Shown here: positions 12,449 to 49,111 of the stretch, in pieces
Numbering within the stretch: position 1 is the stretch's first letter
Layout: every line of letters begins with the position of its first letter
Origin: Candidatus Omnitrophota bacterium
GTDB lineage: Bacteria; Omnitrophota; Gorgyraeia; Zapsychrales; Zapsychraceae
Length of the DNA: 64,000 bases
Assembly: GCA_029261065.1 (NCBI GenBank)
Contig: JAJDCB010000006.1
Span: 64,284-128,283 of the forward strand
Reading direction: 5' to 3'
Position numbers and translations under genes: made by a program
Notes under the pieces: generated by a model
Told to the model about the DNA's origin: nothing
What the model saw: only the letters and a program-made list of their open reading frames with translations
The model's database searches: none

Positions 12449-12712
12449 TTATGAATTGGAAATGGGGGGGCGAAACGCGGTAGGAAGGATGGGTTCTTCG
12501 TAAGAAAAATCTTGAGCAGAAAAAAATGATGTGGTAACTTTTGGTAAATTTAAAGATTGATCACTTGTTAAGATAGCTCCATGACAAGACCCATGGCAAA
12601 TCACAATACCATGATGATGCTCCGTTTCCTCATTATGATCCGCACAGAATGCATCAAGTGGTATAAAGGAAACCACAAGGGCGATCAGAATTAGGATTCT
12701 TAAGAATTTCAT
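12449..12712 (-). CDS. Small secreted His/Cys-rich protein (family member A), putative periplasmic metal-binding or regulatory protein
   Basis: 87 aa; signal peptide, HHHGIVICHGSCHG motif, C-terminal DFSYEEPILPTAFRPPISNS; close paralogue at 48830..49111; sits at the head of the czcCBA operon. Confidence 0.55.
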   Translation of the reverse strand: MKFLRILILIALVVSFIPLDAFCADHNEETEHHHGIVICHGSCHGAILTSDQSLNLPKVTTSFFSAQDFSYEEPILPTAFRPPISNS

Positions 12713-12762
12713 ATTAAAAGCTTACCACCGAAATTTACAAATGTCAATTTGAGGAAAGCCCA

Positions 12763-13005
12763 TTAGTGATTACAGATCTTATCTTCTTCTGTAGAAAACC
12801 CACCTTCCTCATCTACAAATTTTCCACGACTCTCAAGAAAGTCCATTAATTCAACAGCCGTCATGTTTTCCTCTGAACAAGTATGAAAACGCGCTTCTTC
12901 ACCAAACTTCTTATCAATAGCCTCTTTAAGGCTTTCTTTGGTAAAGGTTTGCTTAAGTTCAATCATCATACTCATGACGTCATGACCGTGTATAGATTCT
13001 GCCAT
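12763..13005 (-). CDS. YecH-like (DUF2492-type) small metal-binding protein
   Basis: 80 aa; N-terminal SIHGH and central FHTCSEE...KICNH spacing matches my recollection of the YecH family; terminal gene of the RND operon. Confidence 0.5.
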   Translation of the reverse strand: MAESIHGHDVMSMMIELKQTFTKESLKEAIDKKFGEEARFHTCSEENMTAVELMDFLESRGKFVDEEGGFSTEEDKICNH

Positions 13006-13024
13006 TTTTCACCTCTTGTTGATG

Positions 13025-16000
13025 CTAAACATTTTGTTGATTACGCTTAGAACGATTTATTCTACCATATTGCCATTCCAAGACAATACTTAATACAACT
13101 GGAACAAGTACAAGTGTAAAAATTGTTGAAACAAGCAAGCCTCCTACAACAACACTTCCTAATCCTCTATATAACTCACTTCCCGAACCAGGCATTAAAA
13201 CAAGCGGTAACATGCCGCCAACACTCGTTAACGTACTCATTAAGATGGGACGTACACGACTAATAACACTTGCCCTTATCGCTTCGTTTGGATGCATCGC
13301 TCCGTCTTCATTTAAGAAATTCAACGTCTGATGCACAAGTAAAATCGCATTGTTTACAACAACTCCAGCCAAAATCATAAATCCTAACATCGTTAAAACA
13401 TCTAAATTTTGTACTGGCATATAACGATCTAGTTCTGAGAAGAAATGTACAACCGACAAACCTAAAAATCCGCCAAAAGTGGCTAAAGGAACTGAGACCA
13501 TAATAACAAATGGGTAAACCCAACTTTGAAATAATACAACCATGGTTAAGTACACAACAAACAAAGCCAAAAACATCGAACTCGATAAAGTCCCTACTAA
13601 AGATCCATCTCCAAGCATTGCCCTTTTAAGTTCGTTTAACTTTCCAGCTGTTCCCGCCTGATTCATGTGAACGGATGGATGAATAGCTCCGGTCTCACGT
13701 AAATTTAAAACAACTTCATCAATTTTTTCAACCGCTTCTTGTAGCGTCATCCCTGGTGGCGGAGTTAACTGTAAGGTGACAGCTCTTTGACGATTGACAC
13801 GTTTAATCTGATTCGGTTGAGAGACACGTTTTATGGTAGCGACAGAAGCTAAATCAACAACTTGTCCATCTGGGGCTGCAAATAATGCATTGTTTAAAGC
13901 TTCTACTGGCACATCGCTTAACGCGCCATGTGTAATAATTTTTAAATCTTTAAGTTCACCTGCTACTTCATACTCGCCCACAAATAAACCATCGCCGTAA
14001 GCCCGAATAATTAATCCCAAATCTTGTCGTGTCATTCCCATTTCACTGAGACGTTCATCGTTTGCAACAATTTGTATCTCTGGTGTTGGTAAAGAGAAGT
14101 TCGCGGGTTCTGGTTGAATCGCATAAGGACCGAATGATTCGATTAAAGAACCCATCAGCGCTCCGGCGGATGCTGAGACATGTTCTAAATTATCTCCAGT
14201 TAAATCAATATTGATAGCGGAACCTGTCTGACCACCTGTACGAAACAAAGGAAACTGGAAAGAAAAGCTAAAAGTATCAGGAGCTTGATCTCCGGCCGTT
14301 GCGTAATTAAATAAATTAAGGGTGTCAACAACACGCTTATCTTCCTTTACAATAGCAACATGAAAGACACGTCCATCCCATCCAACAACAAAATAATGAT
14401 CCAATAGCGGCGCTTTAATGGTAGGAGCCCCTTCTTCCATACTCAACGGAAGATCAACACGACGATCTTTAACATTTTTATCTTCTCCTAAAACGCGCTC
14501 AATCTCAAACTTCGCCTCTGTCAATTCCCAAGCAGGCCTTACCCTCTCTTCTAATCGCTCCCCTAACTTATCTAATTGTTTAACGTTATACCCAGGTGGA
14601 GGAATCATTAAACCAAAAACGATATTTCGATTTCCTTTTGGCAAATAATCCATAGGCGGTAGAAGCAAGGCAATACCGATAACAGTAACCAACCCAAACG
14701 AAACAATTGTCACAATACGAAGAGACCATGTTGACGCTAGTTTATGAACAAAATTTCCAACAAAAACAGGCAAATTTTTAAGACTTAACTTACCCAAAAA
14801 CCCTTTCTTCTTTTCTTCTGGCTTTTTATTACTTTTAATTAATATGCGTGAAGCAGCTGAAGGAATAACCATAACCGAGACAATCAAACTTAAGCCAACC
14901 GCTGCCGCAATTGCTAAAACGATATCGCGAAATAATTGTCCGGCTGATTCTTGAATCAACAATACGGGTAAAAATACAACCAACGTTGTTAACGTTGAGG
15001 CCACAACAGCTCCGGACACTTCCTGCGCCCCATCCAAAGAGGATTGTTTAACACTCTTGCCCATCTCCAAATGACGAAAAATATTTTCAATCACAACAAT
15101 CGCATTATCAACAACCATCCCAACAGCAAAAGCCATTCCCGCTAAAGAAACAATATTTATACTTCGCCCTAAGACAACTAAGACAATGATACTTCCAATA
15201 ACAGATATTGGAATCGCTACGGCGATAATACCAATGGTTCTTAAAGAACGTAAAAACAGCAACAACGTAATGATCGATAAAAAGCCGCCTATAAAGATAT
15301 TAGATTGAACAAGACCAATGGCTTGATGAACATACTGTGTTGAGTCATATGTCTGCACAAGCTCAAGTATTCCGTTAAGCCCCAATTCTTTCGCATGTTG
15401 TTCCAGCAAAGCCCCTGGTTCGTTTAATTGATCACAAACCGCTTGAACCTCATCCATGGTCTTAATTAAATTTGCTCCTGTCTCAAGCTGAAAATTAAAA
15501 AACGGCATCACATGTCCACGCGCCCGGACATAATTCTGCCGTTCTTTGTATGTTTCTACAACCTCAGCTACATCTTTTAAGTAAACCGGGCCGCTTTCAT
15601 CACGTCGAATAATTAGACTCTTAACCTTTTCTATATTAGAGAAGCGCCCCAACATGCGAACGCGAACATCATTTTTTCCTTCTGATAATTTTCCACCGGA
15701 GTAATTTTCGTTATTTAAAAGTAACGTGTCATAAAGTTGCTGTATCGTCATCTCCCGTTGTGCTAACGACACTGGATCAATACGAATTTGAACCTCACGC
15801 TCACGCGCCCCTAATATACCAACAAGAGAAACTCCTGGGATGCGTTCAAAAATAGGCTTTAACTTCTTATCCATAAAATCAAATAACGTTGTTGTATCAA
15901 ACTCAGGATCTGACGAAGCTAATCCGATCCAAGCAATATAATCAATTGATTCTGGATCGACATCTTGAATAACAGGCCGATCGACTCCTTGTGGGTAATT

Positions 16001-16351
16001 TGGAACTTGGCTTAGCTTTTGATCAACCTCGCTCATCGCATCATCAATATCCGTACCCGTTCGAAACTCCAAACGAATCTGCCCTTGACCAGACTGACTT
16101 AAAGATGTCATAGCAACTAATCCAGCAATACCCTGCAACACCTCTTCTTGTTCATCGACAACTTCTGTTTCAATCTCCTGCGGACTAGAGTTTTCCCACG
16201 TTGTCGTTACAGCAATGACAACAGATTCAACCTCCGGCGCCATTTGAACGGGAACACGTGTGAAAGAAAGAATACCTGCAAGAACAACAAGAATAACCCC
16301 AACGGCAACTGTAATAGGTTGTTTGATACTAAATTCTATCCAAGATTTCAT
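13025..16351 (-). CDS. RND efflux permease, unusually long at 1108 aa
   Basis: 12-TM RND architecture with two large periplasmic loops; about 60-80 aa longer than typical AcrB/CzcA. Confidence 0.8.
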   Translation of the reverse strand: MKSWIEFSIKQPITVAVGVILVVLAGILSFTRVPVQMAPEVESVVIAVTTTWENSSPQEIETEVVDEQEEVLQGIAGLVAMTSLSQSGQGQIRLEFRTGTDIDDAMSEVDQKLSQVPNYPQGVDRPVIQDVDPESIDYIAWIGLASSDPEFDTTTLFDFMDKKLKPIFERIPGVSLVGILGAREREVQIRIDPVSLAQREMTIQQLYDTLLLNNENYSGGKLSEGKNDVRVRMLGRFSNIEKVKSLIIRRDESGPVYLKDVAEVVETYKERQNYVRARGHVMPFFNFQLETGANLIKTMDEVQAVCDQLNEPGALLEQHAKELGLNGILELVQTYDSTQYVHQAIGLVQSNIFIGGFLSIITLLLFLRSLRTIGIIAVAIPISVIGSIIVLVVLGRSINIVSLAGMAFAVGMVVDNAIVVIENIFRHLEMGKSVKQSSLDGAQEVSGAVVASTLTTLVVFLPVLLIQESAGQLFRDIVLAIAAAVGLSLIVSVMVIPSAASRILIKSNKKPEEKKKGFLGKLSLKNLPVFVGNFVHKLASTWSLRIVTIVSFGLVTVIGIALLLPPMDYLPKGNRNIVFGLMIPPPGYNVKQLDKLGERLEERVRPAWELTEAKFEIERVLGEDKNVKDRRVDLPLSMEEGAPTIKAPLLDHYFVVGWDGRVFHVAIVKEDKRVVDTLNLFNYATAGDQAPDTFSFSFQFPLFRTGGQTGSAINIDLTGDNLEHVSASAGALMGSLIESFGPYAIQPEPANFSLPTPEIQIVANDERLSEMGMTRQDLGLIIRAYGDGLFVGEYEVAGELKDLKIITHGALSDVPVEALNNALFAAPDGQVVDLASVATIKRVSQPNQIKRVNRQRAVTLQLTPPPGMTLQEAVEKIDEVVLNLRETGAIHPSVHMNQAGTAGKLNELKRAMLGDGSLVGTLSSSMFLALFVVYLTMVVLFQSWVYPFVIMVSVPLATFGGFLGLSVVHFFSELDRYMPVQNLDVLTMLGFMILAGVVVNNAILLVHQTLNFLNEDGAMHPNEAIRASVISRVRPILMSTLTSVGGMLPLVLMPGSGSELYRGLGSVVVGGLLVSTIFTLVLVPVVLSIVLEWQYGRINRSKRNQQNV

Positions 16352-16353
16352 CG

Positions 16354-17526
16354 TTATTTCTTTGCCTTCATTTTTGTGATTTCAATAGGACTATTAGGGA
16401 AGATGCGTTCATTACCTTCAACAATTATGAAATCCCCTGCTTTTACTTGATCTGTCTCGATAACTGCCTCACCACCAAATGTAAACAGAATTTGCACTGG
16501 AACCTGCATCGCCATATGCCCTTTGTCTGCTGGCTGAGCTTTAAAAACAAACGAACCAAACTGATTACGGATAAGCGCATCATCAGGAACAACTAACCCT
16601 GTCATTTGTTTACCAACCGGAACCCAAGTTGTCACAGACATCCCAGGGGATAATAATGCTGCTCTATCTTTAATTTGTACGATTAGCTTCAATGTCCGTG
16701 AACGCGTATCGACCTGATGAATCATCTTTATGGATTCGCTTTTAAAACGCTTCTTTAAAGCATCGACTTCTATTTCCAAAAAATCGTTACTTTCAAAAGT
16801 TGCTTGAACCAAACGTTCCGAAAGGTTAATCCATGCTTCTATAGCACCAGATGAGATCATTGTGACAACAGCCGTTCCCGGTGTTAACCATTCACCAGGT
16901 TCAACATGACGCGCAATAACCGATCCATTAAAAGGGGCTTTAATTGTCATATCTTCTAATCGTACTCTCAATAATTCAATTCGACTTTTAATTTCTTCGA
17001 CACTTCCCTTTGCTGACTGCAAGCGCGCAACGGCAACCTTCTTCTCGCGTTCTGCATCCAAAAAATCTCTTAAAGAAACTGCCTTCTGCTTATATAACCC
17101 CTCTTTCATTTCATAATCAACCTCAACACGCTGTGATTCTACTTGACGTTGTTCAATCAAAGAGTTTGCGGTAGCCATTGCTGCTTTTGCCTCTTTTAAT
17201 TGAGCATCTAAACGCCGTCTATCTAATTCAACAAGAATATCACCCTGTTTTACCAATTGCCCTTCGTTAACTAAAACACTTAAAATCGCGCCTTCCTCAC
17301 GTGCGGCAACTTCAGATTCGGAGACAGCGCGTAATGTTCCAATAGCTTTTTGTCGTTGCTGAACGCTTCTTTCTTCAACCTCTAAAACACGAACAGCTGC
17401 AGCAGGCATCGCGGGAGGAGCTGCTTCTTCGGCAAATACTATTCCTTCCAAAAATACTAAATTTAACAACAACACAATTTTTACAACAATAATTTTCTTC
17501 ATAACAACACCTCTTTTTATTTCCAT
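16354..17526 (-). CDS. RND periplasmic adaptor (HlyD/AcrA family)
   Basis: Signal peptide, coiled-coil hairpin, lipoyl and beta-barrel segments; located between the OMF and RND genes. Confidence 0.8.
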   Translation of the reverse strand: MEIKRGVVMKKIIVVKIVLLLNLVFLEGIVFAEEAAPPAMPAAAVRVLEVEERSVQQRQKAIGTLRAVSESEVAAREEGAILSVLVNEGQLVKQGDILVELDRRRLDAQLKEAKAAMATANSLIEQRQVESQRVEVDYEMKEGLYKQKAVSLRDFLDAEREKKVAVARLQSAKGSVEEIKSRIELLRVRLEDMTIKAPFNGSVIARHVEPGEWLTPGTAVVTMISSGAIEAWINLSERLVQATFESNDFLEIEVDALKKRFKSESIKMIHQVDTRSRTLKLIVQIKDRAALLSPGMSVTTWVPVGKQMTGLVVPDDALIRNQFGSFVFKAQPADKGHMAMQVPVQILFTFGGEAVIETDQVKAGDFIIVEGNERIFPNSPIEITKMKAKK

Positions 17527-18947
17527 CCACCGCCTAATGCCTTAATAAGAAGAACAGTGGTAATTAATCTTTGTTTAATATTTTCAACCTCTTGTCTTTG
17601 GGCATCTAGTGAAACACGTTGCGCATCAACAACCTCTAAAAAGCTAACTAATCCAGCACGGTAACGTTTCATTGATGCCTCTGACGCACTTGTTGCTGCA
17701 TGAGCAGAACGTTTGACTGCACTTGATTGAAGCTCCAAAATTCTCAAACCTGATAAACTATCTTCAACCTCTTGAAAGGCTACTAAAATATTTTGTCGAT
17801 AATCAGCCATTGAAATTTCATATTGTGCTTTGGCCTGTTGAAGTTTTGCCTGATTCCGGCCTCCTTGAAAAATAGGAAAATTAACACTTGGACCTATGGA
17901 CCATGCCCGACTACTCCAGGCAACAATGTCATCGATATCACCACTTTCAAAACCGGCATCTCCTGTTAATGTTATCTTTGGAAAAAATGCAGCACGAGCT
18001 ACTCCAATGCGAGCATTCGTTGCAGCCATCTTTCGTTCAGCAGAGGCAACATCTGGGCGACGCTCAAGAAGCTCTGATGGTAATCCAGCCGGAATACGTG
18101 GAAACCCCATTAATTCTGTCTGCGGCTCTAAAGAAAAACGTGACGGTGCCTGACCAACTAAAACAGCAATCGCATGTTCCACCTCTGCTCGTTGTTTTTG
18201 TAAACCAATCACATCTACTTCTACATTAGCCATTTCTGTCTCAGCACGATAAAGATCGGTTTGACTGACCTCACCACTTTCATATAAATTTTCAACAATT
18301 CCGTAAGCACGCTCTCGGATTTTTAAATGTTCTTTAAGAAGGAGAATCTCTCTATCTAAAGAATTTAATGTAAAATAATTCCGAGCTAACTCTGCACGAA
18401 GAGATAACACAACATTATTAAAATCTGCAATACTCGCTTTATATTCTTCTTTAGCAGCTTCAACAGAACGACGAACACGTCCCCACAAATCTAATTCATA
18501 ACTTAATTCAAAGGGAAGTTTATAATCATTAAACACTTGGGTTTCAAGGGCAAAGGGCTCAAGTGTACCTGATTGTCCTGTGCGCGTCCATTCTGGATTA
18601 AAATCAACAGATGGATAAATCTCCCCTCTATTAAACTTAACAACACTGCGCGCTTCTTTAACACGCGCGGCCGCTCCAATTAAAGATTGATTCTTATCAA
18701 CCTCTTCTTGCAATTCATTTAACGTGTCATTTTTAAAAACGCGCCACCAATCTCCCTTAGGGAAAGCATCATTTGGTTCTGCCACTTTCCAATTTGCGTC
18801 TTCCTTATAATTGTCGGGAATATCAAGCGTTGGACGAGCATAATCTGGTGTGAGTGCCGTACAACCCGTTAAAGAAAAAAGAAATATCATTAATACAATT
18901 TTATTATTTGTCATAAGTTTTACCATTTTTTTTGACTGAACAGTCAA
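17517..18947 (-). CDS. NodT/OprM-family outer membrane efflux lipoprotein
   Basis: Lipobox LTGC after the signal peptide (the real start is probably the internal Met at ~18914); two TolC-type repeats. Confidence 0.8.
   Translation of the reverse strand: MTVQSKKMVKLMTNNKIVLMIFLFSLTGCTALTPDYARPTLDIPDNYKEDANWKVAEPNDAFPKGDWWRVFKNDTLNELQEEVDKNQSLIGAAARVKEARSVVKFNRGEIYPSVDFNPEWTRTGQSGTLEPFALETQVFNDYKLPFELSYELDLWGRVRRSVEAAKEEYKASIADFNNVVLSLRAELARNYFTLNSLDREILLLKEHLKIRERAYGIVENLYESGEVSQTDLYRAETEMANVEVDVIGLQKQRAEVEHAIAVLVGQAPSRFSLEPQTELMGFPRIPAGLPSELLERRPDVASAERKMAATNARIGVARAAFFPKITLTGDAGFESGDIDDIVAWSSRAWSIGPSVNFPIFQGGRNQAKLQQAKAQYEISMADYRQNILVAFQEVEDSLSGLRILELQSSAVKRSAHAATSASEASMKRYRAGLVSFLEVVDAQRVSLDAQRQEVENIKQRLITTVLLIKALGGGWK
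18932..18947. promoter_or_regulatory. 16-bp palindrome TTGACTGAACAGTCAA, candidate TetR operator in front of the OMF-MFP-RND operon
   Basis: Perfect inverted repeat TTGACTG/CAGTCAA with a 2-bp spacer, ~20 bp upstream of the probable OMF start; near-identical copy at 19592..19607. Confidence 0.6.
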
Positions 18948-18966
18948 ATATGATTACAAAAAAAAA

Positions 18967-19578
18967 TTAAGACACGTTTGCTTCTGTCTTAATTCCTAAT
19001 ATATCAAAAACACCATTCTTAATGTTTTTGATGGATTCCAAATTGTTTGTGATTCTTGCTTGAGATAAGACTCCATGGTAATAACAATAAATTTCATCAA
19101 TCTTTGCATCTATATTTGTGATCTCAATCTGGTCTTCTGCCTGCGCATCACGTAGGGCGGCTGCAAAATATTTTTTGATTGCCCCACATTTCGCCTCCAT
19201 GGCCTCACGAATCTTTTGTTCGATAATACCTTGTTCTGTCCCAAGAGATGAATACGGACACCCACAAACAAAGCCTAGCTTTTCAAATTGATCCGCTTGA
19301 ACTTCATAGATCAAATCAAAATAGTCTGTTAGTCGTTTTAATCCTGGTGATTGTGTTGAAAAAATACGATCAAATTTGGGTTGGTATTCTTCGAAATGGA
19401 AAGCAAATGCAGCAACAGCTAAATCGGCTTTCGAAGGGAAATAATGGTAAAAGCTTCCTTTATTAACAGCCGCTTTTTTACAGATGTCCTCCACACTCAC
19501 AGCGCCATAACTTTCGCTCCAAATCAAGTTAATGGCCGTCTTCATAATCCGCTCTTTTGTATTTTTGCTTTTAACCAT
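18967..19578 (-). CDS. TetR/AcrR-family transcriptional repressor
   Basis: N-terminal HTH (AVSVEDICKKAAVNKGSFYHYFPSKADL) and C-terminal ligand-binding domain; directly upstream of the efflux operon. Confidence 0.85.
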   Translation of the reverse strand: MVKSKNTKERIMKTAINLIWSESYGAVSVEDICKKAAVNKGSFYHYFPSKADLAVAAFAFHFEEYQPKFDRIFSTQSPGLKRLTDYFDLIYEVQADQFEKLGFVCGCPYSSLGTEQGIIEQKIREAMEAKCGAIKKYFAAALRDAQAEDQIEITNIDAKIDEIYCYYHGVLSQARITNNLESIKNIKNGVFDILGIKTEANVS

Positions 19579-19591
19579 GGCGCTATTGTAC

Positions 19592-19607
19592 TTGACTGAT
19601 CAGTCAA
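19592..19607. promoter_or_regulatory. 16-bp palindrome TTGACTGATCAGTCAA, candidate autoregulatory TetR operator
   Basis: Perfect palindrome 14 bp upstream of the TetR start codon, flanked by a further partial arm (CTTGAC...GTCAAG). Confidence 0.6.
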
Positions 19608-19769
19608 ATGTCAAGTTTTTATTTTGAAGGGTTGGTTGATATTTACACACCGCCAAAAATTGTTTTAATATGAGAAAAAGTCCTCTTAGAATTATGAGAT
19701 ACAATAAACAAAGAATGTTAGGCACGATTTAATAAATTTTACGTTTAATCGTAGCTGTCACTATTTTTT

Positions 19770-20483: not shown

Positions 20484-20534
20484 AATAATTCCTTTTCTTA
20501 ATATTAATAAACGATGACAGAATCTCTTTAAAAC

Positions 20535-21581: not shown

Positions 21582-21591
21582 TCATTTTCCT

Positions 21592-27191: not shown

Positions 27192-27192
27192 T

Positions 27193-39798: not shown

Positions 39799-40923
<1,125 letters not shown>

Positions 40924-40948
40924 TCAAATTTTTGTTTATTGATACTGG

Positions 40949-42358
40949 TTACTTTTTATTTCGGCCATACGGACGTTTCCATTTTGATGCTTTTGGTTTT
41001 CTAGGCGAACCGGATGAAGCTTCTTTCTTTTGTGTCATTGATTTCTTTGGCTTATGTTGCGGCTTTGATTTTTTTACTGTGGATCGAGCTTTAGATGTCT
41101 TAGGCCTACTCTGTGTGTTTGCAGCTTCATACGTTTTTGTTTTCTTTGGTTTCTTTGGTTTCTTTGGTTTCTTTGATTTCTTTGATTTTTTTGGACGCAA
41201 ATCTAGACGAGATGCCGGTAATTTTCGATCAGGGTTAAAACCTTCTATCATCTGACGAGGTATTACCTGTTTAATCAAACGTTCAATATCCGCAAGTTCC
41301 TTAAATTCCTCAGCGGACACCAACGAAAAAGCATGTCCATTGGATCCAGCTCGACCTGTTCGCCCAATACGATGCACATAATCTTCAGCCACATTCGGCA
41401 AATCAAAATTAACAACTTGAGGAAGTTGATTAATATCAATGCCACGAGCAGCAATATCTGTTGCAACTAAAACCCGAACAACTCCCTTCTTAAAATCCGC
41501 GAGTGCTTTTGTGCGAGCTCCTTGACTTTTATTTCCATGGATCGCCGTCGCTGTAATTTTTGATTGTTCCAGATGTTTCGTTAGTCGGTTGGCGCCATGT
41601 TTTGTTCTACAAAAAACAAGAACTTGTTGCCATTTATGTTTATTAATTAATTTCGTAAGTAGCGCTGACTTACTTTTTTTATCCACCGGATGAAGCCACT
41701 GCTCGACCGTATCAACTGTCGTATTGCGTGGCGTTACTGAAATCTCAACTGGATTATTTATAATTGTTTTTGCAAGTGTACGAACTTCATCAGAAAATGT
41801 TGCTGAAAACAATAAACTCTGACGTTTCTTTGGAAGGTGAGATATTATCTTTCGGATATCCTTAATAAATCCCATATCAAGCATACGATCCCCTTCATCT
41901 AAAACTAAAACTTCAAGAGTCGTAAACTTAACGGCTTTCTGATTATAAAGATCCAGTAAACGACCTGGCGTTGCCACGAGCACATCAACACCCCGACGAA
42001 GTTTCTTCATTTGTGGATTAATCCCTACGCCACCGAATACAACGGCAGAACGCAAAGATAAATATTTACCATAAACCTCCACACTCTCGTGAACCTGTGC
42101 GGCCAACTCTCGGGTTGGTGTTAAGATAAGAACACGCGCTTGATTATGTTGAACCGGCTTTCCTTTTGCAAGACCATGCAAAATAGGTAAAACAAACGCC
42201 GCCGTCTTACCCGTGCCTGTTTGCGCCGCTGCCATAACATCTTTTCCTTTAAGCACCGCTTCAATACCCTGGGCTTGAATTGGCGTTGGTGTATCATATC
42301 CTTTATCAGCTATCGCCTTAAGAAGCGCGTCTGACAAACCCATTTCTGAAAATTTCAT
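40949..42358 (-). CDS. rhlE: DEAD-box ATP-dependent RNA helicase (RhlE-like) with a lysine-rich C-terminal tail
   Basis: Q-motif, Walker [24 protein letters not shown]; tail [17 protein letters not shown]. Confidence 0.9.
41140..41200. repeat. Tandem 9-bp repeat (TTTCTTTGG x4, TTTCTTTGA x2) inside the helicase tail coding region
   Basis: Directly visible tandem repetition; encodes KKPKKPKK on the minus strand. Confidence 0.8.
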
Positions 42359-42429
42359 AAGTTATCTTTTTTTAATTCTGTTTAATATAATTTTTACGGA
42401 AAAGTAACCCTAATTTTTGGGCGTTACCA

Positions 42430-42481
42430 CGCAACATGTTTTCATGTTGCGAAAAGGTAATGCCAGCTTTTGGGCATTACC
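42430..42481 (-). terminator. Two tandem perfect stem-loops; hairpin 2 (GGTAATGCC-8 nt-GGCATTACC) is followed on the minus strand by UUUU
   Basis: CGCAACATG-TTTT-CATGTTGCG (42430..42451) and GGTAATGCC-AGCTTTTG-GGCATTACC (42456..42481), nested in a larger imperfect palindrome TTTTTGGGCG...CGCCCAAAAA (42414..42491). Confidence 0.6.
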
Positions 42482-43172
42482 GCCCAAAAAACAAATAATC
42501 CGTATGTTCTTCATTGTTAAGAAATTTATGTATAAATGTTATCGGCTCAACACGCACCTCACGAAACACACCCCGCAAAGCATCTGCAAAAGGAGAATCT
42601 TGGGCATAAGACCAAACAGCAAGCACGCCATTCTCGTTTAAATGTTTACATGCCGCCTCAAGCCCTTCTCTAGTATAAAATTGTCCAATCTTCGTATCTA
42701 ATCGCTCATCAGGAGAATGATCGACATCAATGAGAATCACATCAAATTTCTTTTCTGGTTCACCAGCCAACTGCTCATAAATATCTCCTTGGACAATTTT
42801 CAGACGATCATCGCCCAAAAGCTCTTTAGATAACGGCACCAATCCTTCATTCATCCACGAAATAACCTGCGGTAGAAATTCAACAACCTCAAGAGATTCA
42901 ACTTGTTTGCTACCTAATGCTTCATACGCCGTATATCCTAACCCCAAACCTCCCACTAAAACAGTTAAATCATTCCCCCCATGCATCTTTAGGGCAATCT
43001 TTGATAATGCACGCTCAGAATCCGTATGATAACTACTCATTAAAAATTCATGATTAAGTGTAATTTCTGTCACTATTATTGTTGGATCTTGTAATGACCG
43101 ACGACGTCTTAAACACAACATCCCCAAAGAGGTTTGCTCATAGGCGAGTATTTCTAAATTTGATTCTGCCAT
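42477..43172 (-). CDS. Spermidine/spermine synthase-family protein (short form lacking the N-terminal domain)
   Basis: Methyltransferase-like glycine-rich LVGGLGLGYTAYEA and the acidic D..D region FDVILIDVDHSPD typical of polyamine aminopropyltransferases. Confidence 0.5.
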   Translation of the reverse strand: MAESNLEILAYEQTSLGMLCLRRRRSLQDPTIIVTEITLNHEFLMSSYHTDSERALSKIALKMHGGNDLTVLVGGLGLGYTAYEALGSKQVESLEVVEFLPQVISWMNEGLVPLSKELLGDDRLKIVQGDIYEQLAGEPEKKFDVILIDVDHSPDERLDTKIGQFYTREGLEAACKHLNENGVLAVWSYAQDSPFADALRGVFREVRVEPITFIHKFLNNEEHTDYLFFGR

Positions 43173-43344
43173 TTTCCTTCTTTACTCAAAGTCATTAGCC
43201 CCTCTTGGAATTTCGTTAAAGCATCGAAATTCCTAAACAAAATTAATATGACCTATCATACTCTTTATTTGAGATATTGCAAAATTGGAAGACAAGAACA
43301 GGCGAGATCTCAGCATCCACAAGCTACACGGAAACCACTGCGAC

Positions 43345-43440
43345 CTTCAGGTTATAAGAACGTTCAAAGTCTTTGCTGGTGTTTGCTGGTATTTACTTGT
43401 TCTCACGCCTGTTTTGTTACACATACTTTATCGCATTTTC
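43345..43440. repeat. Upstream element R3: CCTTCAGGTTATAAGAACGTT block, three heptamers (TTTGCTG, TTTGCTG, TTTACTT) at 10-bp spacing, TTGTTACACATACTTTATCGC
   Basis: Same family as R1 and R2; its 3' end overlaps the stop codon of the znuB-like gene. Confidence 0.6.
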
Positions 43441-44243
43441 CAACTAATAACAGATATTAGCAGTAACATCACCCCAAACACACAAACCACACTTGCTCCC
43501 GTTGGTAAATCGAAAGAATAGGAAACAATCATTCCTATAATACTTCCGACAGTACCAATACTCCAACCAAGAATCAATCTTACACGAAGATTATCTGCTA
43601 AAATCATCGCACATACAGCTGGGATGACTAAAAAGGAAAAAACAAGCAAGACTCCTGCAATTTTAACAGAACTTGTCACAACAAAAGCAAAAGTAACATA
43701 AAAAAGAAAATCCCAGCCTCTCACGTTCAAACCTTGCTCAAAAGCTTTCTCTGGATTTTGAGAAATTAGATAGAATTGTTTTCTAAAAACAAAATGAATC
43801 ACACCCATTAGAGAGTAGATAATTAATATTCTCCCTACTTCTTTTGGACTTACCAACAAAATGTTTCCAAGAAGCGATTGACGAATATGCTCTGTTCCCT
43901 CGCCCGAATAACTCAACACAATAAGCATCAGAGCCGAAGAAACAACATACACAATTCCAATAATAGCCTCATGAGGAATCTTTTGTTTTTTGAATCGTGT
44001 TAAAGCAAATAATCCAGCACCAATGACTGTAAAGGTTAAAGAAATCATATAACCTTGTATGCTTTCCATTTCAAAACCGAACAATATTGCACAACTAGCC
44101 CCTAACACAGCGATCTGGGCAAGTGCTAAGTCAACGAAAATAACCTGACGCTCGATAACATGAAATCCCAAATAGGCATGAATACCAGTTAACACTAAAC
44201 ATGCCATGAAAGGAATTATCATTATTTGCAAGAACTCAATCAT
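43428..44243 (-). CDS. znuB: Metal (Zn/Mn) ABC transporter permease, ZnuB/TroC family
   Basis: ~270 aa, 8-9 TM helices, the conserved family profile. Confidence 0.75.
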   Translation of the reverse strand: MIEFLQIMIIPFMACLVLTGIHAYLGFHVIERQVIFVDLALAQIAVLGASCAILFGFEMESIQGYMISLTFTVIGAGLFALTRFKKQKIPHEAIIGIVYVVSSALMLIVLSYSGEGTEHIRQSLLGNILLVSPKEVGRILIIYSLMGVIHFVFRKQFYLISQNPEKAFEQGLNVRGWDFLFYVTFAFVVTSSVKIAGVLLVFSFLVIPAVCAMILADNLRVRLILGWSIGTVGSIIGMIVSYSFDLPTGASVVCVFGVMLLLISVISWKMR

Positions 44244-45156
44244 GATTAAACCCTTCCTTTAGATTTTTAACAATAAAATCCATCAAACTAAAATAATCAC
44301 TTACTTCTTTGGTTCCGCCAACAGAAATAGGCGTAACAACAACATTAACCTTTACTCTTTCGGCTACATACTGAGCTGCATCGTCTTTGTACACATTCTC
44401 CACAAGAATGACTTTTACTTTCTCTCGATTAACAACATCGATAATACTTTTTAGATGTGTTGGAGAAGGTGGCACCCCTGGTTTGGGTTCTAACTCTCCA
44501 ACAATTTCAAACCCAAATCGATTTGCAAAGTATACCAAGCTTTTATGATACGTAATAACTTTTTCACCAACATAGGGAGATAATATTTCTTCCCATTCAA
44601 TCAACTTTTCATCAATTAAAGTACTGAACCTTGACAAATTTCTATCAAATATTAATTTGTCTTCTGGTGAAATTCTACTTAATCGATTAGCAATACTTGT
44701 TGCGACAAACTTCATATTCAACGGGTCTAACCAATAATGCGGATTACCACTAGCATGAATATCTCCCATAGAACGGTCGACTTGTCTAAGGACATTTAAC
44801 GGTTTGATTCCTATTGAAGCATCCAAGTGTCCATCACGACCAATCTGAATATTAGGATTACGAGAACCCTCCAATATCAATGGTTCATAGCCAACTTCTA
44901 GTTCTAATCCTATACGAATAAACAAGTCCGCTCTTTTAGCTTTAATCATGTAGGATGGTTTAGCTTGTAGAAAATGATAATTCTGATTACCTTTTCCTAA
45001 ACTATAGACCTTAACCTTATCTCCACCAATATACTCGACAACAGATTTCAAATCCGTTGTTGTTGTTACAACATTGATAACTTCTGCCTGGGTAGGCGTT
45101 GCTGAAAACAGCAACGCGTACCCAAGCAATATAAGAGTACTTATTATTTTGCTCAT
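44236..45156 (-). CDS. znuA: Metal ABC transporter substrate-binding protein, ZnuA/TroA cluster-9 family
   Basis: Signal peptide, conserved HYWLDP motif, length ~300 aa. Confidence 0.8.
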   Translation of the reverse strand: MSKIISTLILLGYALLFSATPTQAEVINVVTTTTDLKSVVEYIGGDKVKVYSLGKGNQNYHFLQAKPSYMIKAKRADLFIRIGLELEVGYEPLILEGSRNPNIQIGRDGHLDASIGIKPLNVLRQVDRSMGDIHASGNPHYWLDPLNMKFVATSIANRLSRISPEDKLIFDRNLSRFSTLIDEKLIEWEEILSPYVGEKVITYHKSLVYFANRFGFEIVGELEPKPGVPPSPTHLKSIIDVVNREKVKVILVENVYKDDAAQYVAERVKVNVVVTPISVGGTKEVSDYFSLMDFIVKNLKEGFNHD

Positions 45157-45165
45157 AACTCCCCC

Positions 45166-46389
45166 TTACCGATACGCATGTGGTTTATGTGGCCCGATAG
45201 AAAAGTCGAGCTGTAACCACACTGTATTATCATCTGAGGTTTCGTTATCAGTATGCGTAAACATTGCCCTCCAAAACACATACTCACTTTGTGCAAATGT
45301 AAGACCCGTAGAATAAGCATGCGTGTCTACTTCTGAGCTGCTCGGTGTTTGACTAAAATCATAACGGCCAAAAGCCCACCAACGATCAGTAAGTTGTTGT
45401 TCAAGAGATGTAAACATACCCCAAGAATTAATGTCATCGCCTGCTGCTTGTTCACGAACATTAAACAACGCTTCTGTATGTGATGTCGTACGTTTATTAA
45501 CAAACAACTCTGTGCTATTAATGGTTAAATCAACACCCGTGATTCGTGATTCTGCACCATTGCCATCACCATTTTCTCCAAAGGAAAAAGTGTTTCCAAT
45601 TTCAAATGAAGTTTCATCTGTGATGTCGAAGAAATTCTTAAGATGAGCTAAATAAACGGTCTCCCCATCTTCTCCTCCACCAAAGACTGTTGAACCATTA
45701 TTAAACGCTTCGAGTGTAATCTCAGAATAGATATCGGCAGGGTTAAGAATCAAATAACTTAAACTTGCTCCGGCCTCACTGTTTCCTTCTTCTCCAAGAA
45801 AATTCTGAACAACAAGCGGATAATCACTCCAAGGTAATTGATGTAAATGCATCTTATTTGTTTTTCCCATGTATGGCCTAAACTTTCCAAACTTACCTTG
45901 TAAATTCTCAATGGGTGTTTCAAGCAAAGTCAGATAACCTTCTTCTAAAGCAACCTCTGTACTGCCATCTTCATTTTCAATGGCAACAATCACATCACCA
46001 CGCGCATAGGTGTCAACATTAGCAGAAAATGCCACCTCTACTTCACGCATGTTAAATTGATTATCACCCTCCCCACCGTTTTTATCAGACTTATAAATAA
46101 AGTCGCCGATAACACTAACTTGCGGGTTAAGAGTAGATAAGGCGCTTACCGGTTGATTTATGTCAGCTTTCTCCAACCCTTCAACACGCATTTGCAACCG
46201 TTCTATTTCTTGCTTATCTTTAGACGATTGAATTTGTTTTTCTTGTTCAAGCTGTTCAATTCGTCCTTGCATCTCACCCATCTGAACTTGCATGGTTTGA
46301 AACATACTTTTTAATTCAGATAACTCATCTGCATGTGCACAAGAGCACATAGCAAAAAGCACAAAAGCACTTAATATAAACTTTTTCAT
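45166..46389 (-). CDS. Outer membrane porin-like protein with an N-terminal coiled-coil (paralogue of 35791..37137)
   Basis: Signal peptide, ~50-aa coiled-coil (ELSELKSMFQTMQVQMGEMQGRIEQLEQEKQ), beta-rich remainder; stop 10 bp before the znuA-like start. Confidence 0.5.
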   Translation of the reverse strand: MKKFILSAFVLFAMCSCAHADELSELKSMFQTMQVQMGEMQGRIEQLEQEKQIQSSKDKQEIERLQMRVEGLEKADINQPVSALSTLNPQVSVIGDFIYKSDKNGGEGDNQFNMREVEVAFSANVDTYARGDVIVAIENEDGSTEVALEEGYLTLLETPIENLQGKFGKFRPYMGKTNKMHLHQLPWSDYPLVVQNFLGEEGNSEAGASLSYLILNPADIYSEITLEAFNNGSTVFGGGEDGETVYLAHLKNFFDITDETSFEIGNTFSFGENGDGNGAESRITGVDLTINSTELFVNKRTTSHTEALFNVREQAAGDDINSWGMFTSLEQQLTDRWWAFGRYDFSQTPSSSEVDTHAYSTGLTFAQSEYVFWRAMFTHTDNETSDDNTVWLQLDFSIGPHKPHAYR

Positions 46390-46517
46390 AAAAACCCCTC
46401 CAATTGGAAGACTGCAATAAACAGTCTCTTAGATAGACCTATCCGTAAGATAGACTAATAACTTAGTTTGAATTTGTAACTTCTGAATGGAATTTCTTTA
46501 ACGATAGAAATTTCGAA

Positions 46518-46814
46518 TTAAACTAAACTTGGAGGGCCCCGAGGGGATGGAAGGTAAAAATCAACCCTTGATTTGATTGATTGAAAAACATTTGTTACAT
46601 GACGCTGAACCTTAATTTTTAATGCTGCAATTGCAACAACAATAGAAATTAAAGCTTGCACTAAAAATTGATAAAGTGGACATTCCTGCTCTGTCCCATG
46701 TTCATGATCGTGAACTTGGCTGTGAAAATACTCACCCCCAATAGACAAAAAAGCAAAGCCCAAAAGCGCAAAGCAAAGAAATATAATTGGAATTTTTTTA
46801 TTTATTTTAATCAT
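46518..46814 (-). CDS. Small His-rich membrane protein (family member C)
   Basis: 98 aa; TM, HSQVHDHEHGTEQEC, second TM, C-terminal DFYLPSPRGPPSL resembling the C-terminal motif of 12449..12712 and 48830..49111. Confidence 0.45.
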   Translation of the reverse strand: MIKINKKIPIIFLCFALLGFAFLSIGGEYFHSQVHDHEHGTEQECPLYQFLVQALISIVVAIAALKIKVQRHVTNVFQSIKSRVDFYLPSPRGPPSLV

Positions 46815-46965
46815 TTTTTACTCAATATTGAAGTATGAGGCTATCAAAATTAATCAAATCTGTCAATCAACCTATTTCATAAGCAAAAAAAATTTTAAAT
46901 CTCTTCTTTCAACCTACATTTCATAAAACAGCAATCGTAATCGGGGAACACCTAACGACCTAACA

Positions 46966-47373
46966 CTATTGATTCATATTCTCAATCCAAATACGTATAG
47001 GCAGCAATGCATAAGCTGCAAAGACAGATATAGCCAAAAGAATTGTGGAGACAATAAGAATTCTTTTTTGCCATTTGAGAATTCTCTGATCTTTGATATT
47101 GCAAGCCGCCCCCTCTTGCGCCATCTTGTTCCCTAACTGTGATAAAGCATACCAGCAATAACCAAGCATCAATGCCGTTATACCGAAGGTATAAACCTTG
47201 TATTTCGCGATCGTTCCTAACCAAGGAACATTAGAAAATAACGAAGCCACAGCGCCTCCTAATCCTATTGAAACAAGGGCTATAGGTAACGCACAACAGG
47301 TCGTTGAGAGAATCGCTAAACCTGTTCCGGTAAAGAGCGTTGTATTTGTCTTGATATTATTTTTTTTATCCAT
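46966..47373 (-). CDS. MerT-like metal transport membrane protein
   Basis: 135 aa, 3-4 TM helices, vicinal cysteines in TM1 (STTCCALP) as in mercuric transporter MerT. Confidence 0.6.
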   Translation of the reverse strand: MDKKNNIKTNTTLFTGTGLAILSTTCCALPIALVSIGLGGAVASLFSNVPWLGTIAKYKVYTFGITALMLGYCWYALSQLGNKMAQEGAACNIKDQRILKWQKRILIVSTILLAISVFAAYALLPIRIWIENMNQ

Positions 47374-48243
47374 TTAAAAACTCCATCCCATTCCGACATC
47401 TAATTGATGGCCGAATGAAACTGATTCATCTAATGCATTTTCATAAATAGGAATGGTATAAACAATTTTGGCAATCATAGAGCCTTGGAAATAAACGAAG
47501 CCCGGCCCCAACATCACCCGAGTCCCAGCATTATTCCCAGAAATCTTTGAACCACCTTCCTTATACCTAAGCCCATAATCAAGTTGAATAGATGCCCCAG
47601 CACTCTTTTTTCCATTATGATAAATTGCTTTTCCTAAAGTCATATCGAGACCAAATAAATTCCCCTCATGTTGATCTCTCGTTCCCTCATTATTGATCCA
47701 ATAGAAAAAATCAACCCCAGCTAAATAATAAGGACTTTCAGCGCCATAACTCAAGGACACCCCCACATCTGTACTCCCATCCCCAATCGGATAATCACCA
47801 CTTGTTTTACCTGACGGAATACGAAGGCTTGGTGTAAAGCTAAAGTTATTCGTCCAATTTCTGTGGTTGATATATTTTCTTAAAGGCGTTCCGATAATAA
47901 TGTCACCCAAACCGCGGTCATGCTGCCTGACAGCTTTTCCACCAATTTCAGTCACACGCATTTTATCGACGTATGGAATCTTAATAGTGATCCGTTTGGA
48001 TCGATCCCACGTATAAACACCTTCCAACCATGTTGTATCAACTCGCCGTTCCTTGCCTAAAGGATTTGCGATTTCGTCATCGCCAGACAACAATGTATCG
48101 GAGGCACGGTATTCATGGCGAATCTGAAATCCTTTTCCCCCAGCCCAGCGAGGCGCTTCGTTCATCACAGGTTGATCGGCGCGAGCTGGAGTTATCAAAG
48201 CCAGACACACTCCTATACTGAGTAATATTTTAAACCATTTCAT
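47374..48243 (-). CDS. Putative outer membrane beta-barrel protein
   Basis: Signal peptide, alternating amphipathic beta-strand pattern, C-terminal aromatic residue (GMGWSF). Confidence 0.4.
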   Translation of the reverse strand: MKWFKILLSIGVCLALITPARADQPVMNEAPRWAGGKGFQIRHEYRASDTLLSGDDEIANPLGKERRVDTTWLEGVYTWDRSKRITIKIPYVDKMRVTEIGGKAVRQHDRGLGDIIIGTPLRKYINHRNWTNNFSFTPSLRIPSGKTSGDYPIGDGSTDVGVSLSYGAESPYYLAGVDFFYWINNEGTRDQHEGNLFGLDMTLGKAIYHNGKKSAGASIQLDYGLRYKEGGSKISGNNAGTRVMLGPGFVYFQGSMIAKIVYTIPIYENALDESVSFGHQLDVGMGWSF

Positions 48244-48246
48244 ACA

Positions 48247-48777
48247 CTACTCGCCTTCTATGATTGTATTAACTTCAGCCAATGGAATTGTATTTTTTTT
48301 GAGAGCCTTTATAGACTGTTCATTAACGAAAAGCTGCAACTCATAAGTTTGATTCTGCACCAACTGTTGCGCTTTATCACCTGTTAATTCGTACAACTTT
48401 TCTTGATCGTCATTAACAATGAACTTACGGTCGCCTTCATCAACAGATTGTCCCTTAACACGCATATGAAAAACTCTTGGTTCATATCCGCTCTTGCGAA
48501 TTGTTTTGGACATTTCTTGCAGATTTACGTCCTCGCCTTCTTTTAAATGAATGGTGATGATTTGATTTTCGATGTCTGATTCAACCCCCTTATGCCCTTG
48601 AGATTGATCAATGCAGCCCATCTTTGACAATCCCTTTTGCATGCCAAAGGAACAATACGCACAAACAGCTCCGTTAATTTCCAGCTTTGCCTGATTCGGC
48701 GCCACTTGCACTGCGGAGGCCCATACTTGGGTACAACTCAGAAGTAATATAGTAAATATAGAAAATATATGTTTCAT
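48247..48777 (-). CDS. Periplasmic heavy-metal-associated (HMA/MerP-like) domain protein with an extra C-terminal domain
   Basis: Signal peptide; GAVCAYCSFG fits the HMA GxxCxxC metal-binding loop with the expected downstream beta-alpha-beta pattern. Confidence 0.5.
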   Translation of the reverse strand: MKHIFSIFTILLLSCTQVWASAVQVAPNQAKLEINGAVCAYCSFGMQKGLSKMGCIDQSQGHKGVESDIENQIITIHLKEGEDVNLQEMSKTIRKSGYEPRVFHMRVKGQSVDEGDRKFIVNDDQEKLYELTGDKAQQLVQNQTYELQLFVNEQSIKALKKNTIPLAEVNTIIEGE

Positions 48778-48829
48778 AGGAATTCTCCTTTGAGACTAAT
48801 AATTAGTTGAATAAAGATTGGAAATAAAA

Positions 48830-49111
48830 CTATGAAATAGAGATTGGGGGGCGATGCTCTGTAGGTAAGACCGGCTCATCGTAGAAAAAATCTTGAGCCG
48901 AGAAGAAATGTGTGGATACTTCCGGTAAATTAATAGATTGCCTACTACTCAAAACCGCCCCAGAACATGCAAAATGACATAATACAATTCCATGCTGATG
49001 CTCCGTCTCCTCATGATGATCTTCGCAAAACGCGTCGAGCTGCAGGGAGGATACGACGAGGGCAATTAGAATTATGCTTTTTAAGAACTTCATAACACGA
49101 TCAGGATACAT
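48830..49111 (-). CDS. Small secreted His/Cys-rich protein (family member B)
   Basis: 93 aa; roughly 60 percent identical to 12449..12712 over signal peptide, EHQHGIVLCHFACSG and C-terminal DFFYDEPVLPTEHRPPISIS. Confidence 0.55.
   Translation of the reverse strand: MYPDRVMKFLKSIILIALVVSSLQLDAFCEDHHEETEHQHGIVLCHFACSGAVLSSRQSINLPEVSTHFFSAQDFFYDEPVLPTEHRPPISIS

Follow-up and report, generated by a model that had tools for sequence, protein, structure and literature searches.

Small genes at the head of metal-transport operons in an Omnitrophota contig: candidate metal-sensing leader peptides of two families

Three small genes, here named A, B and C, lie in a 64,000-nucleotide stretch of a Candidatus Omnitrophota contig (GenBank assembly GCA_029261065.1, contig JAJDCB010000006.1, positions 64,284 to 128,283), which is referred to throughout as the window. 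An earlier, sequence-only reading of the window had picked them out as His/Cys-rich proteins associated with metal transporters, and the three open reading frames (ORFs) are indeed present where it had placed them. All gene-like ORFs of the window are on the minus strand, and upstream here means towards higher coordinates. The genes are treated below as candidates for regulatory peptides that sense metal while still attached to the ribosome:

12449-12712, minus strand: gene A, A-type leader peptide of 87 amino acids (aa), with a signal peptide, a Cys/His cluster and the C-terminus RPPISNS (the role as a leader peptide being the reading argued for below)
48830-49093, minus strand: gene C, A-type paralogue of 87 aa; the ORF reaches an ATG at 49111 that is probably unused
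46518-46814, minus strand: gene B, two-segment membrane peptide of 98 aa, with a first transmembrane segment (TM1), a His-rich loop ending in E-C-P, a second transmembrane segment (TM2) and the tail PRGPPSLV

Genes A and C are clear paralogues, as had been recognised from the sequence, with 61 of 87 residues identical (70%; E = 1e-45). Their coding sequences differ at 75 nucleotides, 45 of them at third codon positions, and a metagenomic relative that was also compared follows the same trend. Since third-position changes dominate, A and C are translated genes under purifying selection. The frame assigned to C (48830-49111) stands, but the start assigned to it does not: the ATG at 49111, from which the product would have 93 aa, is next to the predicted -10 box (49103-49108), and transcription directed by this box would begin downstream of that ATG, so that the true start is probably the ATG at 49093, where the conserved MKFLK sequence begins and from which C has the same length as A. 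The C-terminal tails are as first described (FRPPISNS in A, HRPPISIS in C, PRGPPSLV in B). Both A and C have one hydrophobic segment, which is N-terminal and follows basic residues, and AlphaFold2, given a 60-sequence alignment of the A type, predicts a confident helix solely for residues 2-15, corresponding to the signal peptide. A lipoprotein reading of the conserved AFC sequence was rejected, on sequence and general knowledge, because Phe at position -1 is unfit for a lipobox. Beyond the signal peptide the following elements can be distinguished:

12581-12646, minus strand: putative metal-binding cluster of A (C23, H26, H32-H34 and C39-H-G-S-C43-H44), of which C39 is nearly invariant
12464-12472, minus strand: R81-P82-P83 codons of A (CGC CCC CCC), the proposed pause or arrest site, 4 codons before the stop
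48845-48853, minus strand: R-P-P codons of C (CGC CCC CCA)

Gene B is built differently. It has two hydrophobic segments, at about residues 7-27 and 46-66, the first of which is more likely an uncleaved membrane anchor, and its own pair of notable elements:

46677-46724, minus strand: His-rich loop of B (H31, H35, H37, H39 ... E44-C45-P46)
46530-46541, minus strand: R92-G93-P94-P95 codons of B (CGG GGC CCU CCA), an RGPP arrest motif (motif properties from PMC12992588)

The three proteins had been read as a single family of three members. That grouping does not survive comparison: BLASTP aligns B with C over only 10 residues (E = 0.2), profile-profile comparison of the A type with the B type gives a probability of 0.6% (4 + 4 sequences) or 1% (60 + 5 sequences) with only the last 9-13 residues aligned, and the topologies differ. 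One homologous family for A, C and B is thus rejected on sequence and profile comparison; by the same measures these are two families, with an architecture that is either convergent or very diverged. Common to A, B and C are a segment for export or anchoring at the N-terminus, a His/Cys cluster, and Arg-(Gly)-Pro-Pro in the C-terminal tail. Across the approximately 19,800 residues of minus-strand ORFs in the window, R[A/G]PP occurs once, in B (as RGPP), and RPP occurs three times, two of these being in A and C.

A word-indexed protein search returned only 2-4 relatives per family. An exhaustive HMMER search of 1.84 billion representatives reached further, and thereby showed the A-type family to be real: 62 A-type representatives were found at E <= 1e-3, nearly all of 80-95 aa, and the two that carry names are "hypothetical protein" entries from Candidatus Omnitrophota metagenome-assembled genomes (MAGs). 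Pfam and NCBIfam scans matched no model to A, B or C and found nothing meaningful in 60 A-type and 5 B-type members, a PDB sequence search with the A-type profile gave no match, and neither did a profile search of genome contigs with a 4-sequence alignment. In the remote-homology check that the sequence-only reading had proposed, no unrelated family claims any of the three proteins. In the 60-member A-type alignment the only invariant columns are P82 and P83, with R81, P74 and C39 nearly invariant. Arg precedes the Pro pair in 54 of the 60 sequences, exactly 4 residues follow it in 53 of 60, and the distance from Cys to Arg is 40-43 residues in 57 of 59, across a linker of highly variable sequence; the commonest spacing from the last Cys to Arg is 37. 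In A and C themselves a C-x3-C is followed by RPP at a spacing of 37/41, with no RAPP or RGPP. The best conserved feature of the A type is accordingly the placement of R-P-P and not the metal ligands. All five B-type sequences carry RGPP or RAPP with 2-3 residues behind it, and all five have an invariant E-C-P whose Cys precedes the Arg by exactly 46 residues. Such a fixed distance to the stop, coupled with a ruler from ligand to proline, would be unexpected for a mature periplasmic protein.

Each small gene also has a promoter-like site of its own:

12719-12747, minus strand: promoter-like site of A, TTGACA (12747-12742), 17 nucleotides (nt), TAAGCT (12724-12719), 6 nt to the ATG
49103-49131, minus strand: promoter-like site of C, TTGACT, 17 nt, TATCCT, 9 nt to the ATG at 49093
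46838-46866, minus strand: promoter-like site of B, TTGACA, 17 nt, TAGCCT, leader of about 23 nt

This places each of them first on its transcript, which fits the role of a leader peptide. In all 12 A-type loci examined (A and C of the window, L002, L004, L008, L009, L014-L016 and L018-L020, where L numbers denote loci other than those of the window) the arrangement is (c)TTGAC(A/T), 16-17 nt, TAnnCT and 6-9 nt to the ATG, with no Shine-Dalgarno sequence. As only 6-9 nt separate the -10 box from the ATG, the prediction for A-type transcripts is that they have little or no leader. In the A-type -10 box the C at the fifth position varies unusually little. In B-type genes the site reads TTGAC(A/G)-N17-TA... 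and the leader has about 22-25 nt.

The genes that the three peptides would regulate are as follows, with spacers of 92 nt (A), 52 nt (C) and 128 nt (B) to the next gene:

7014-12356, minus strand: proposed regulated operon of A, with an outer membrane efflux protein (OEP, 11097-12356), a membrane fusion protein (MFP, 10133-11134) and a CusA/CzcA-family resistance-nodulation-division (RND) pump (7014-10118)
46966-48777, minus strand: proposed regulated cluster of C, with MerP-like p176 (48247-48777), a 289-aa barrel-like protein (47374-48243) and a MerT-like protein (46966-47373)
43428-46389, minus strand: proposed regulated operon of B, with p407 (45166-46389), a ZnuA-family protein (44236-45156) and an ABC-3/ZnuB permease (43428-44243)

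That A heads an efflux operon had been proposed from the sequence and is borne out, the pump passing the CusA/CzcA model TIGR00914 (1168 bits, cutoff 701). The order given for the other two genes, with B heading and C closing the MerT cluster, has to be reversed: because all genes are on the minus strand, C heads the MerP/barrel/MerT genes and B follows them, heading p407-ZnuA-ZnuB. In addition to the promoter-like site of B, the B-type gene precedes p407 in L001 (there followed by ZnuA and ZnuB), L005/L006 and L007, where the genes upstream are unrelated, and in L001, L005 and L007 there is no MerT cluster upstream; in L003 the B-type gene precedes an outer-membrane barrel. A-type genes precede OEP(-MFP-RND) at 11 distinct loci (A of the window, L008, L009 and L013-L020), the series being interrupted solely in L014, where one ORF for a small membrane protein (about 160 aa, 5277-5872) occupies a gap of 596 nt between the A-type gene and OEP, and they precede a homologue of p176 in L002 and L004. 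The neighbourhood census thus upholds the suspected link to metal transporters, with the small gene first in 14 of 14 distinct A-type loci that have downstream sequence and in 5 of 5 B-type loci, and with CusA/CzcA-type efflux genes, MerP-like genes, p407-ZnuAB or the outer-membrane barrel of L003 downstream. No two-component or extracytoplasmic-function (ECF) sigma genes adjoin A, B or C.

Some features of these neighbours may be recorded here. Transmembrane helix 4 of the RND pump behind A contains AIGIGMMVDASIVIVEN (residues about 400-420; pattern AIGxxxxVDASxxxVEN). By the Nies classification this motif looks CusA-like (Cu/Ag) more than CzcA-like (DFG...DGA...VEN), and the label 'czcCBA-like', previously applied to the operon of A, may be a misnomer. 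The protein p176 has 176 aa and a weakly MerP-like N-terminus. The 407 aa of the uncharacterised p407 include a signal peptide and a coiled-coil-like N-terminus; it is conserved directly upstream of ZnuA-ZnuB (L001 6467-9425; L007 572-1792) and has no Pfam, NCBIfam or PDB match, and the 289-aa barrel has no PDB match. No gene for a ZnuC ATPase adjoins ZnuA-ZnuB, the next gene, in L001 as in the window, being spermidine-synthase-like (42477-43172 in the window).

A signal peptide together with a conserved Cys/His cluster, consistent co-location with transporters, and purifying selection over the whole coding length are what would be expected if the small proteins were stable exported metal binders, that is, metallochaperones or buffers like CusF, CopC or MerP, with the RPP tail serving as a docking or processing motif. 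This is nevertheless unlikely. It is R-P-P that is conserved best, and not the ligands, and the distance from it to the stop is fixed although a mature protein has no need of this; the gene is always first in its operon with a structured spacer behind it; and in B the motif is on the predicted cytoplasmic tail after TM2, where docking in the periplasm is impossible. No fold is predicted beyond the signal peptide, and there is no similarity to chaperone families or to solved structures: specifically, tests for a metallochaperone (CusF, or the HMA fold of CopZ/MerP) turned up no Pfam, NCBIfam or PDB match and no predicted compact fold. Moreover CutF, a peptide of comparable design described below, is degraded at once after its export (PMC9973294).

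The structured spacers were analysed by computing the energy needed to open the downstream ribosome-binding site (RBS), both in the free RNA and with a ribosome footprint forced single-stranded at successive codons. As controls, 14 gene pairs of the window with spacers of 40-160 nt gave free energies of 0.7-7.1 kcal/mol and changes of -1.6 to +0.9 kcal/mol. The regions concerned are:

46390-46517, minus strand: B-to-p407 intergenic region, 128 nt, highly structured (z = -3.4), its RBS pairing with the Pro-Pro codons
12357-12448, minus strand: A-to-OEP intergenic region, 92 nt; UUCAUAA (12449-12455) pairs with UUAUGAA at the OEP start (12352-12358)
48772-48837, minus strand: C-to-p176 junction; UUUCAUAG (48830-48837) pairs with CUAUGAAA (48772-48779) enclosing a hairpin with the AAGGAG RBS

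The segment of B from the last 72 nt of the coding sequence through the spacer to the p407 start folds far better than its shuffles (the z of -3.4 refers to this comparison). In the closing helix CCCUCCAA (46529-46536), which runs from the end of the Gly codon through the two Pro codons to the first base after them, acts as an anti-Shine-Dalgarno sequence by pairing with the p407 RBS UUGGAGGG (46396-46403). In five of five B-type loci the Pro-Pro codons (CCU CCN; CCUCC) pair with the GGAGG Shine-Dalgarno sequence of the next gene, across spacers of 68-128 nt whose internal hairpins differ from locus to locus. An alignment of the B-type loci anchored on this helix has 84% of its cells paired, versus 33-55% in slid registers; 4 of 11 pairs have compensatory changes, on both sides, and the covariation score is 0.255 compared with 0.105 for shuffles, 3 of 500 of which reach 0.255. 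Coming as it does from five related sequences, this covariation is supportive and not proof. In the window, the RBS downstream of B requires 13.5 kcal/mol to open in the free RNA and 5.4-9 kcal/mol with the footprint at or beyond the Pro codons; in L001 the energy goes from 12.5 to about 7 kcal/mol and in L003, L005 and L007 it drops by 2-4 kcal/mol. A local hairpin (UCUUCC-AAUU-GGAGGG, 46396-46411) can also sequester the p407 RBS and competes with a hairpin just upstream. In view of these competing local hairpins, the B spacer may be a three-state switch and not a simple on/off stem.

In a subgroup of the A type comprising A and C of the window, L002 and L004, a helix joins UUUCAUA(A/G) of the stop region to (U/C)UAUGAAA at the following start, around an RBS hairpin, and it contains one compensatory change (UAG/C vs UAA/U). 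The opening energy in this subgroup falls exactly as the P-site reaches Pro1/Pro2, strongly in L004 (15.5 to 7.5 kcal/mol) and modestly in L002 (6.7 to 4.3 kcal/mol), and the free opening energy at C, 8.4 kcal/mol, exceeds all 14 controls. Masking of the RBS is not a universal property of the A-type family, since it is absent from six distant loci, listed below. Searches of Rfam found no known riboswitch, leader or tRNA in the window at gathering scores, nor in 46300-49300 at E <= 1.

RNA structure alone cannot tell a ribosome in transit from one that is arrested, and the footprint scan keeps the RBS open at every ribosome position from the motif to the stop. The same pairing could in principle reflect plain translational coupling, in which any ribosome that reaches the stop opens the structure, and the His/Cys residues and RPP have no role in sensing or arrest. 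This is considered very improbable: coupling would not preserve R-P-P, a Cys/His cluster, the spacing between them and an export signal across 60 diverged peptides, and RGPP is otherwise avoided in proteomes (PMC12992588).

Peptides with these properties have been described in other bacteria. CutF of Rhodobacter capsulatus combines a Sec signal peptide with a CxxxC and, at its C-terminus, a proline motif (Ozturk et al. 2023, PMC9973294; bioRxiv 10.1101/2025.02.05.636593). Copper on the exported nascent chain prolongs stalling, which melts a stem-loop over the cutO RBS (PMC9973294; bioRxiv 10.1101/2025.02.05.636593). To count as CutF-like, an ORF must be shorter than 150 aa, have PP among its last 15 residues, begin with a signal peptide and be followed by a gene in the same direction; the most frequent neighbour is the OEP of a Cus/Czc pump, and some clusters have His ligands only (PMC9973294). 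A, B and C all have these features: A, C and B are 87, 87 and 98 aa long; PP, which no A-type (60 of 60) or B-type (5 of 5) sequence lacks, is followed by 4 residues in A and C and by 3 in B; and, as signal peptide, there is a hydrophobic segment after basic residues, with the AlphaFold2 helix noted above. The published CutF-like proteins were gathered by iterative jackhmmer searches starting from CutF and form 29 similarity clusters; the UniProt reference proteomes searched for them may lack Omnitrophota MAG proteins (PMC9973294). The likeness of A to CutF goes further: both are small first cistrons with a Sec signal peptide, an upstream Cys plus CxxxC (C39-H-G-S-C43 in A) and a near-C-terminal proline motif with a basic residue, and in A a short structured spacer masks the next RBS and the OEP of a Cus/Czc pump lies downstream. 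However, A and C have no detectable sequence similarity to CutF and end in R-P-P-[I/V] plus 3 residues instead of PPP. In addition, A-type transcripts are predicted to be leaderless, C precedes a MerP/MerT-like cluster and not a multicopper oxidase, and CutF-like proteins belong mainly to Pseudomonadota and Bacteroidota whereas the named A-type members are from Omnitrophota MAGs.

For B the closest parallel is CruR (Bp2923, DUF2946), whose gene opens a copper-uptake operon of Bordetella pertussis (Roy et al. 2022, PMC9426467). It has a CXXC, then 45 residues, then RAPP with 3 residues to the end, a spacing that is conserved and needed for function; with copper the arrest at RAPP is lifted and Rho-dependent termination follows (PMC9426467), and the arrest has been demonstrated in vitro (PMC12992588). 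B is likewise a first cistron before a metal-uptake operon, with R-[A/G]-P-P 2-3 residues from the end and a Cys spacing of 46 (45 in CruR), but it has a single Cys (E-C-P) in a His-rich loop rather than a CXXC, and two membrane segments. Its target, p407-ZnuA-ZnuB (probably Zn or Mn), is not a TonB-dependent copper receptor, and its spacer of 68-128 nt with pairing between Pro-Pro codons and Shine-Dalgarno sequence indicates translational control, in contrast to the 162-nt spacer and Rho dependence of CruR. RGPP and RAPP are the most robust arrest cores, refractory to EF-P, RGPP being the most robust of all (Fujiwara et al. 2025, PMC12992588). No 4-mers are more strongly depleted in bacterial proteomes; enrichment of the two is seen at the C-terminal ends of small proteins, secreted or membrane-bound, whose genes precede those for metal homeostasis (PMC12992588). 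B and its four relatives conform to the RAPP/RGPP sequence rule, and A and C, with R-P-P, do not. Like the RAPP/RGPP peptides (ApdA, ApdP, ApcA, SecM-type; PMC7897499, PMC10951233, PMC12992588), B is small and membrane-targeted, with a C-terminal RGPP and a co-directional gene downstream. Classic members of that group monitor Sec or YidC and lack metal ligands. A and C lack the residue between R and PP, and instead of the localisation factor expected downstream of a Sec or YidC monitor (SecM, MifM, VemP, ApdA) there is an OEP, a MerP-like protein or p407/ZnuA.

CzcI (Cupriavidus/Ralstonia), which the CutF authors placed in the CutF-like class (PMC9973294), also lies ahead of an OEP gene and has a signal peptide, a His-rich stretch and a CxxC 37 residues before RAPD. 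It differs in having no PP, and in giving a weak, sub-threshold match to DUF2946 where the window proteins give none. The CzcI encoded on a Ralstonia pickettii plasmid (L024 970-1317) ends NARAPDRPQWQRLA, with RAPD 37 residues after the CxxC, and on this sequence RAPD looks like a decayed or variant RAPP at the A-type spacing of last Cys to Arg. That record names the 115-aa product 'CDF family transporter CzcI', clearly in error. A further candidate was noted on the Sphingomonas aerolata plasmid NZ_CP098763.1 (4698-5066; L022 1068-1436), where an unannotated 122-aa ORF directly upstream of TolC-MFP-CusA has a signal peptide, the sequence HHHGGCHGHH, the tail ALRPPQA and 41 residues from Cys to the Arg of RPP; the record has an opposite-strand 'hypothetical protein' in its place. 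This looks like a CutF-like leader peptide that annotation missed.

CzcI has also been proposed to act in trans, and A, B and C could by analogy be small membrane or periplasmic regulators that contact a sensor kinase, the pump or the ABC permease. The position of CzcI before czcCBA is the same, its signal peptide, His-rich stretch, CxxC and RAPD 37 residues later are arranged alike, and its Cys-to-Arg count equals the commonest A-type last-Cys spacing; B, with its two membrane segments, could be an accessory subunit. A role of this kind is judged quite unlikely, given that A, B and C have no two-component or ECF sigma genes beside them and that profile comparison with CzcI was negative; action in trans also leaves unexplained the distance from PP to the stop and the compensated pairing of PP codons with the Shine-Dalgarno sequence.

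Taken together, A, C and B are probably cis-acting, metal-sensing regulatory leader peptides of the CutF/CruR/RAPP-RGPP kind. Of the roles first suggested for them (periplasmic sensor, chaperone or regulatory module), that of sensor or regulator is thus favoured and that of a stable periplasmic protein is not. A cis-acting nascent peptide is preferred because R-P-P is fixed relative to both the stop and the Cys, the mature part appears foldless, and the stall codons pair with the downstream RBS. By rule A and C would be filed as CutF-like, and B would go with the CruR type, as a candidate RGPP arrest peptide. The likeness to the known class lies in the way of working; membership of DUF2946 by sequence is not demonstrable.

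From the observed anatomy, conservation pattern, gene context and RNA pairing we infer arrest, metal binding, metal specificity and a direction of response, as follows. Each small gene would lead the transcript of a metal-transport operon, made from a promoter of its own, and the signal peptide (A, C) or first membrane segment (B) would bring the translating ribosome to the Sec translocon. The ribosome would then pause or arrest at R-P-P (A, C) or R-G-P-P (B) during peptide-bond formation, at which point the Cys/His cluster, 40-60 residues from the peptidyl-transferase centre, would be just out of the exit tunnel and located in the translocon or periplasm (A, C) or in the loop before TM2 (B). 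Binding of metal would alter the pulling force on the chain or its conformation, and hence the dwell time of the ribosome. While parked, the ribosome would keep the downstream RBS open by covering the mRNA that otherwise pairs with it, namely the Pro-Pro codons (CCUCC, pairing with GGAGG) in B and the stop region (pairing with the start region) in A and C. On physiological grounds only, metal would be expected to prolong the pause before the efflux operon of A, as in CutF, and to release the arrest before the ZnuAB-type uptake operon of B, so turning uptake off, as in CruR. The His-rich loop of B and its ZnuA-like target suggest Zn or Mn as the metal in question.

Several observations weigh against leader-peptide regulation, chiefly in the A type. 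R-P-P-[I/V] falls outside the established strong arrest motifs (RAPP, RGPP, RAGP, PPP), and even the PPP of CutF without its sensing domain did not stall in a heterologous reporter (PMC9973294). The fall in opening energy is modest at A (6.5 to 4.5 kcal/mol, a drop of 1.4-2.0), and at C (8.4 to 7.1 kcal/mol, a drop of 0.8-1.3) it is within the control range. Masking of the RBS by the stall region was absent from six distant A-type loci that head OEP genes (L008, L009, L015, L016, L018, L020); if the peptides there are regulators they would have to act otherwise, for instance by CruR-like Rho-dependent termination. The AlphaFold2 model of the A-type mature part, which has no secondary structure (pLDDT 51-77, pTM 0.26), is weak evidence in the case of a small metal-dependent protein. 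Pfam DUF2946 (PF11162) gave no match at E <= 1 for 60 A-type sequences or at E <= 10 for A, B, C and the 5 B-type sequences. When the model was calibrated, CzcI scored 15.9 bits (E = 0.023; cutoff 23.7) and the Sphingomonas ORF gave no match; as both fall short, the model misses part of the functional class. Comparison of profiles (hhalign) with CzcI yielded 3% for the A type, through the signal peptide only, and 0.7% for the B type, and that of the A-type alignment with the Sphingomonas ORF was negative. Homology of either type to CzcI, or of the A type to the Sphingomonas ORF, was thus undetectable by profile comparison.

Sensing of metal by nascent peptides has been recognised for only a few years, and the systems tested experimentally are copper systems of Proteobacteria only (CutF, CruR). 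The class as such was described between 2022 and 2025; A/C and B enlarge it by two hitherto unannotated families, one of Omnitrophota type and one with two segments and RGPP on a Zn-type operon, both from uncultured bacteria and captured by no Pfam or NCBIfam model. What may be new is the R-P-P-[I/V]+3 variant, the leaderless transcripts, the use of Pro-Pro codons as anti-Shine-Dalgarno sequence before a ZnuAB-type operon, and the presence of three sensors within 40 kb. B is an unusually clean test case, in that the RGPP codons are themselves the anti-Shine-Dalgarno sequence of a Zn-type uptake operon. On the reading as leader peptides, a single genome turns one device to efflux as well as to uptake. 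It is possible, though doubtful, that the A type constitutes an arrest module of its own kind (K/x-R-P-P-[I/V] followed by exactly 3 residues, with 40-43 residues as Cys ruler, leaderless) and the B type the first Zn/Mn-sensing RGPP peptide (sensing through the His-rich loop that links its two membrane segments, with Pro-Pro codons that double as anti-Shine-Dalgarno sequence), and that one genome runs three differently tuned sensors, for efflux, MerTP-type import and ZnuAB uptake, instead of the usual two-component or MerR/Zur regulators. This would carry the mechanism beyond copper and beyond Proteobacteria. Annotation as regulatory leader peptides, and not as hypothetical proteins or metallochaperones, is advised, and the fixed signature can be used to find further ORFs of this sort.

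Two minor observations concern the rest of the window. Between A and a second RND operon (TetR-OEP-MFP-RND, 13025-19578) lies a gene for an 80-aa DUF2492 protein (12763-13005; E = 3.8e-33) with His/Cys-containing termini. The minus strand carries every ORF of at least 130 aa that resembles a gene, and GC skew stays negative across the whole window (cumulative -6.4).

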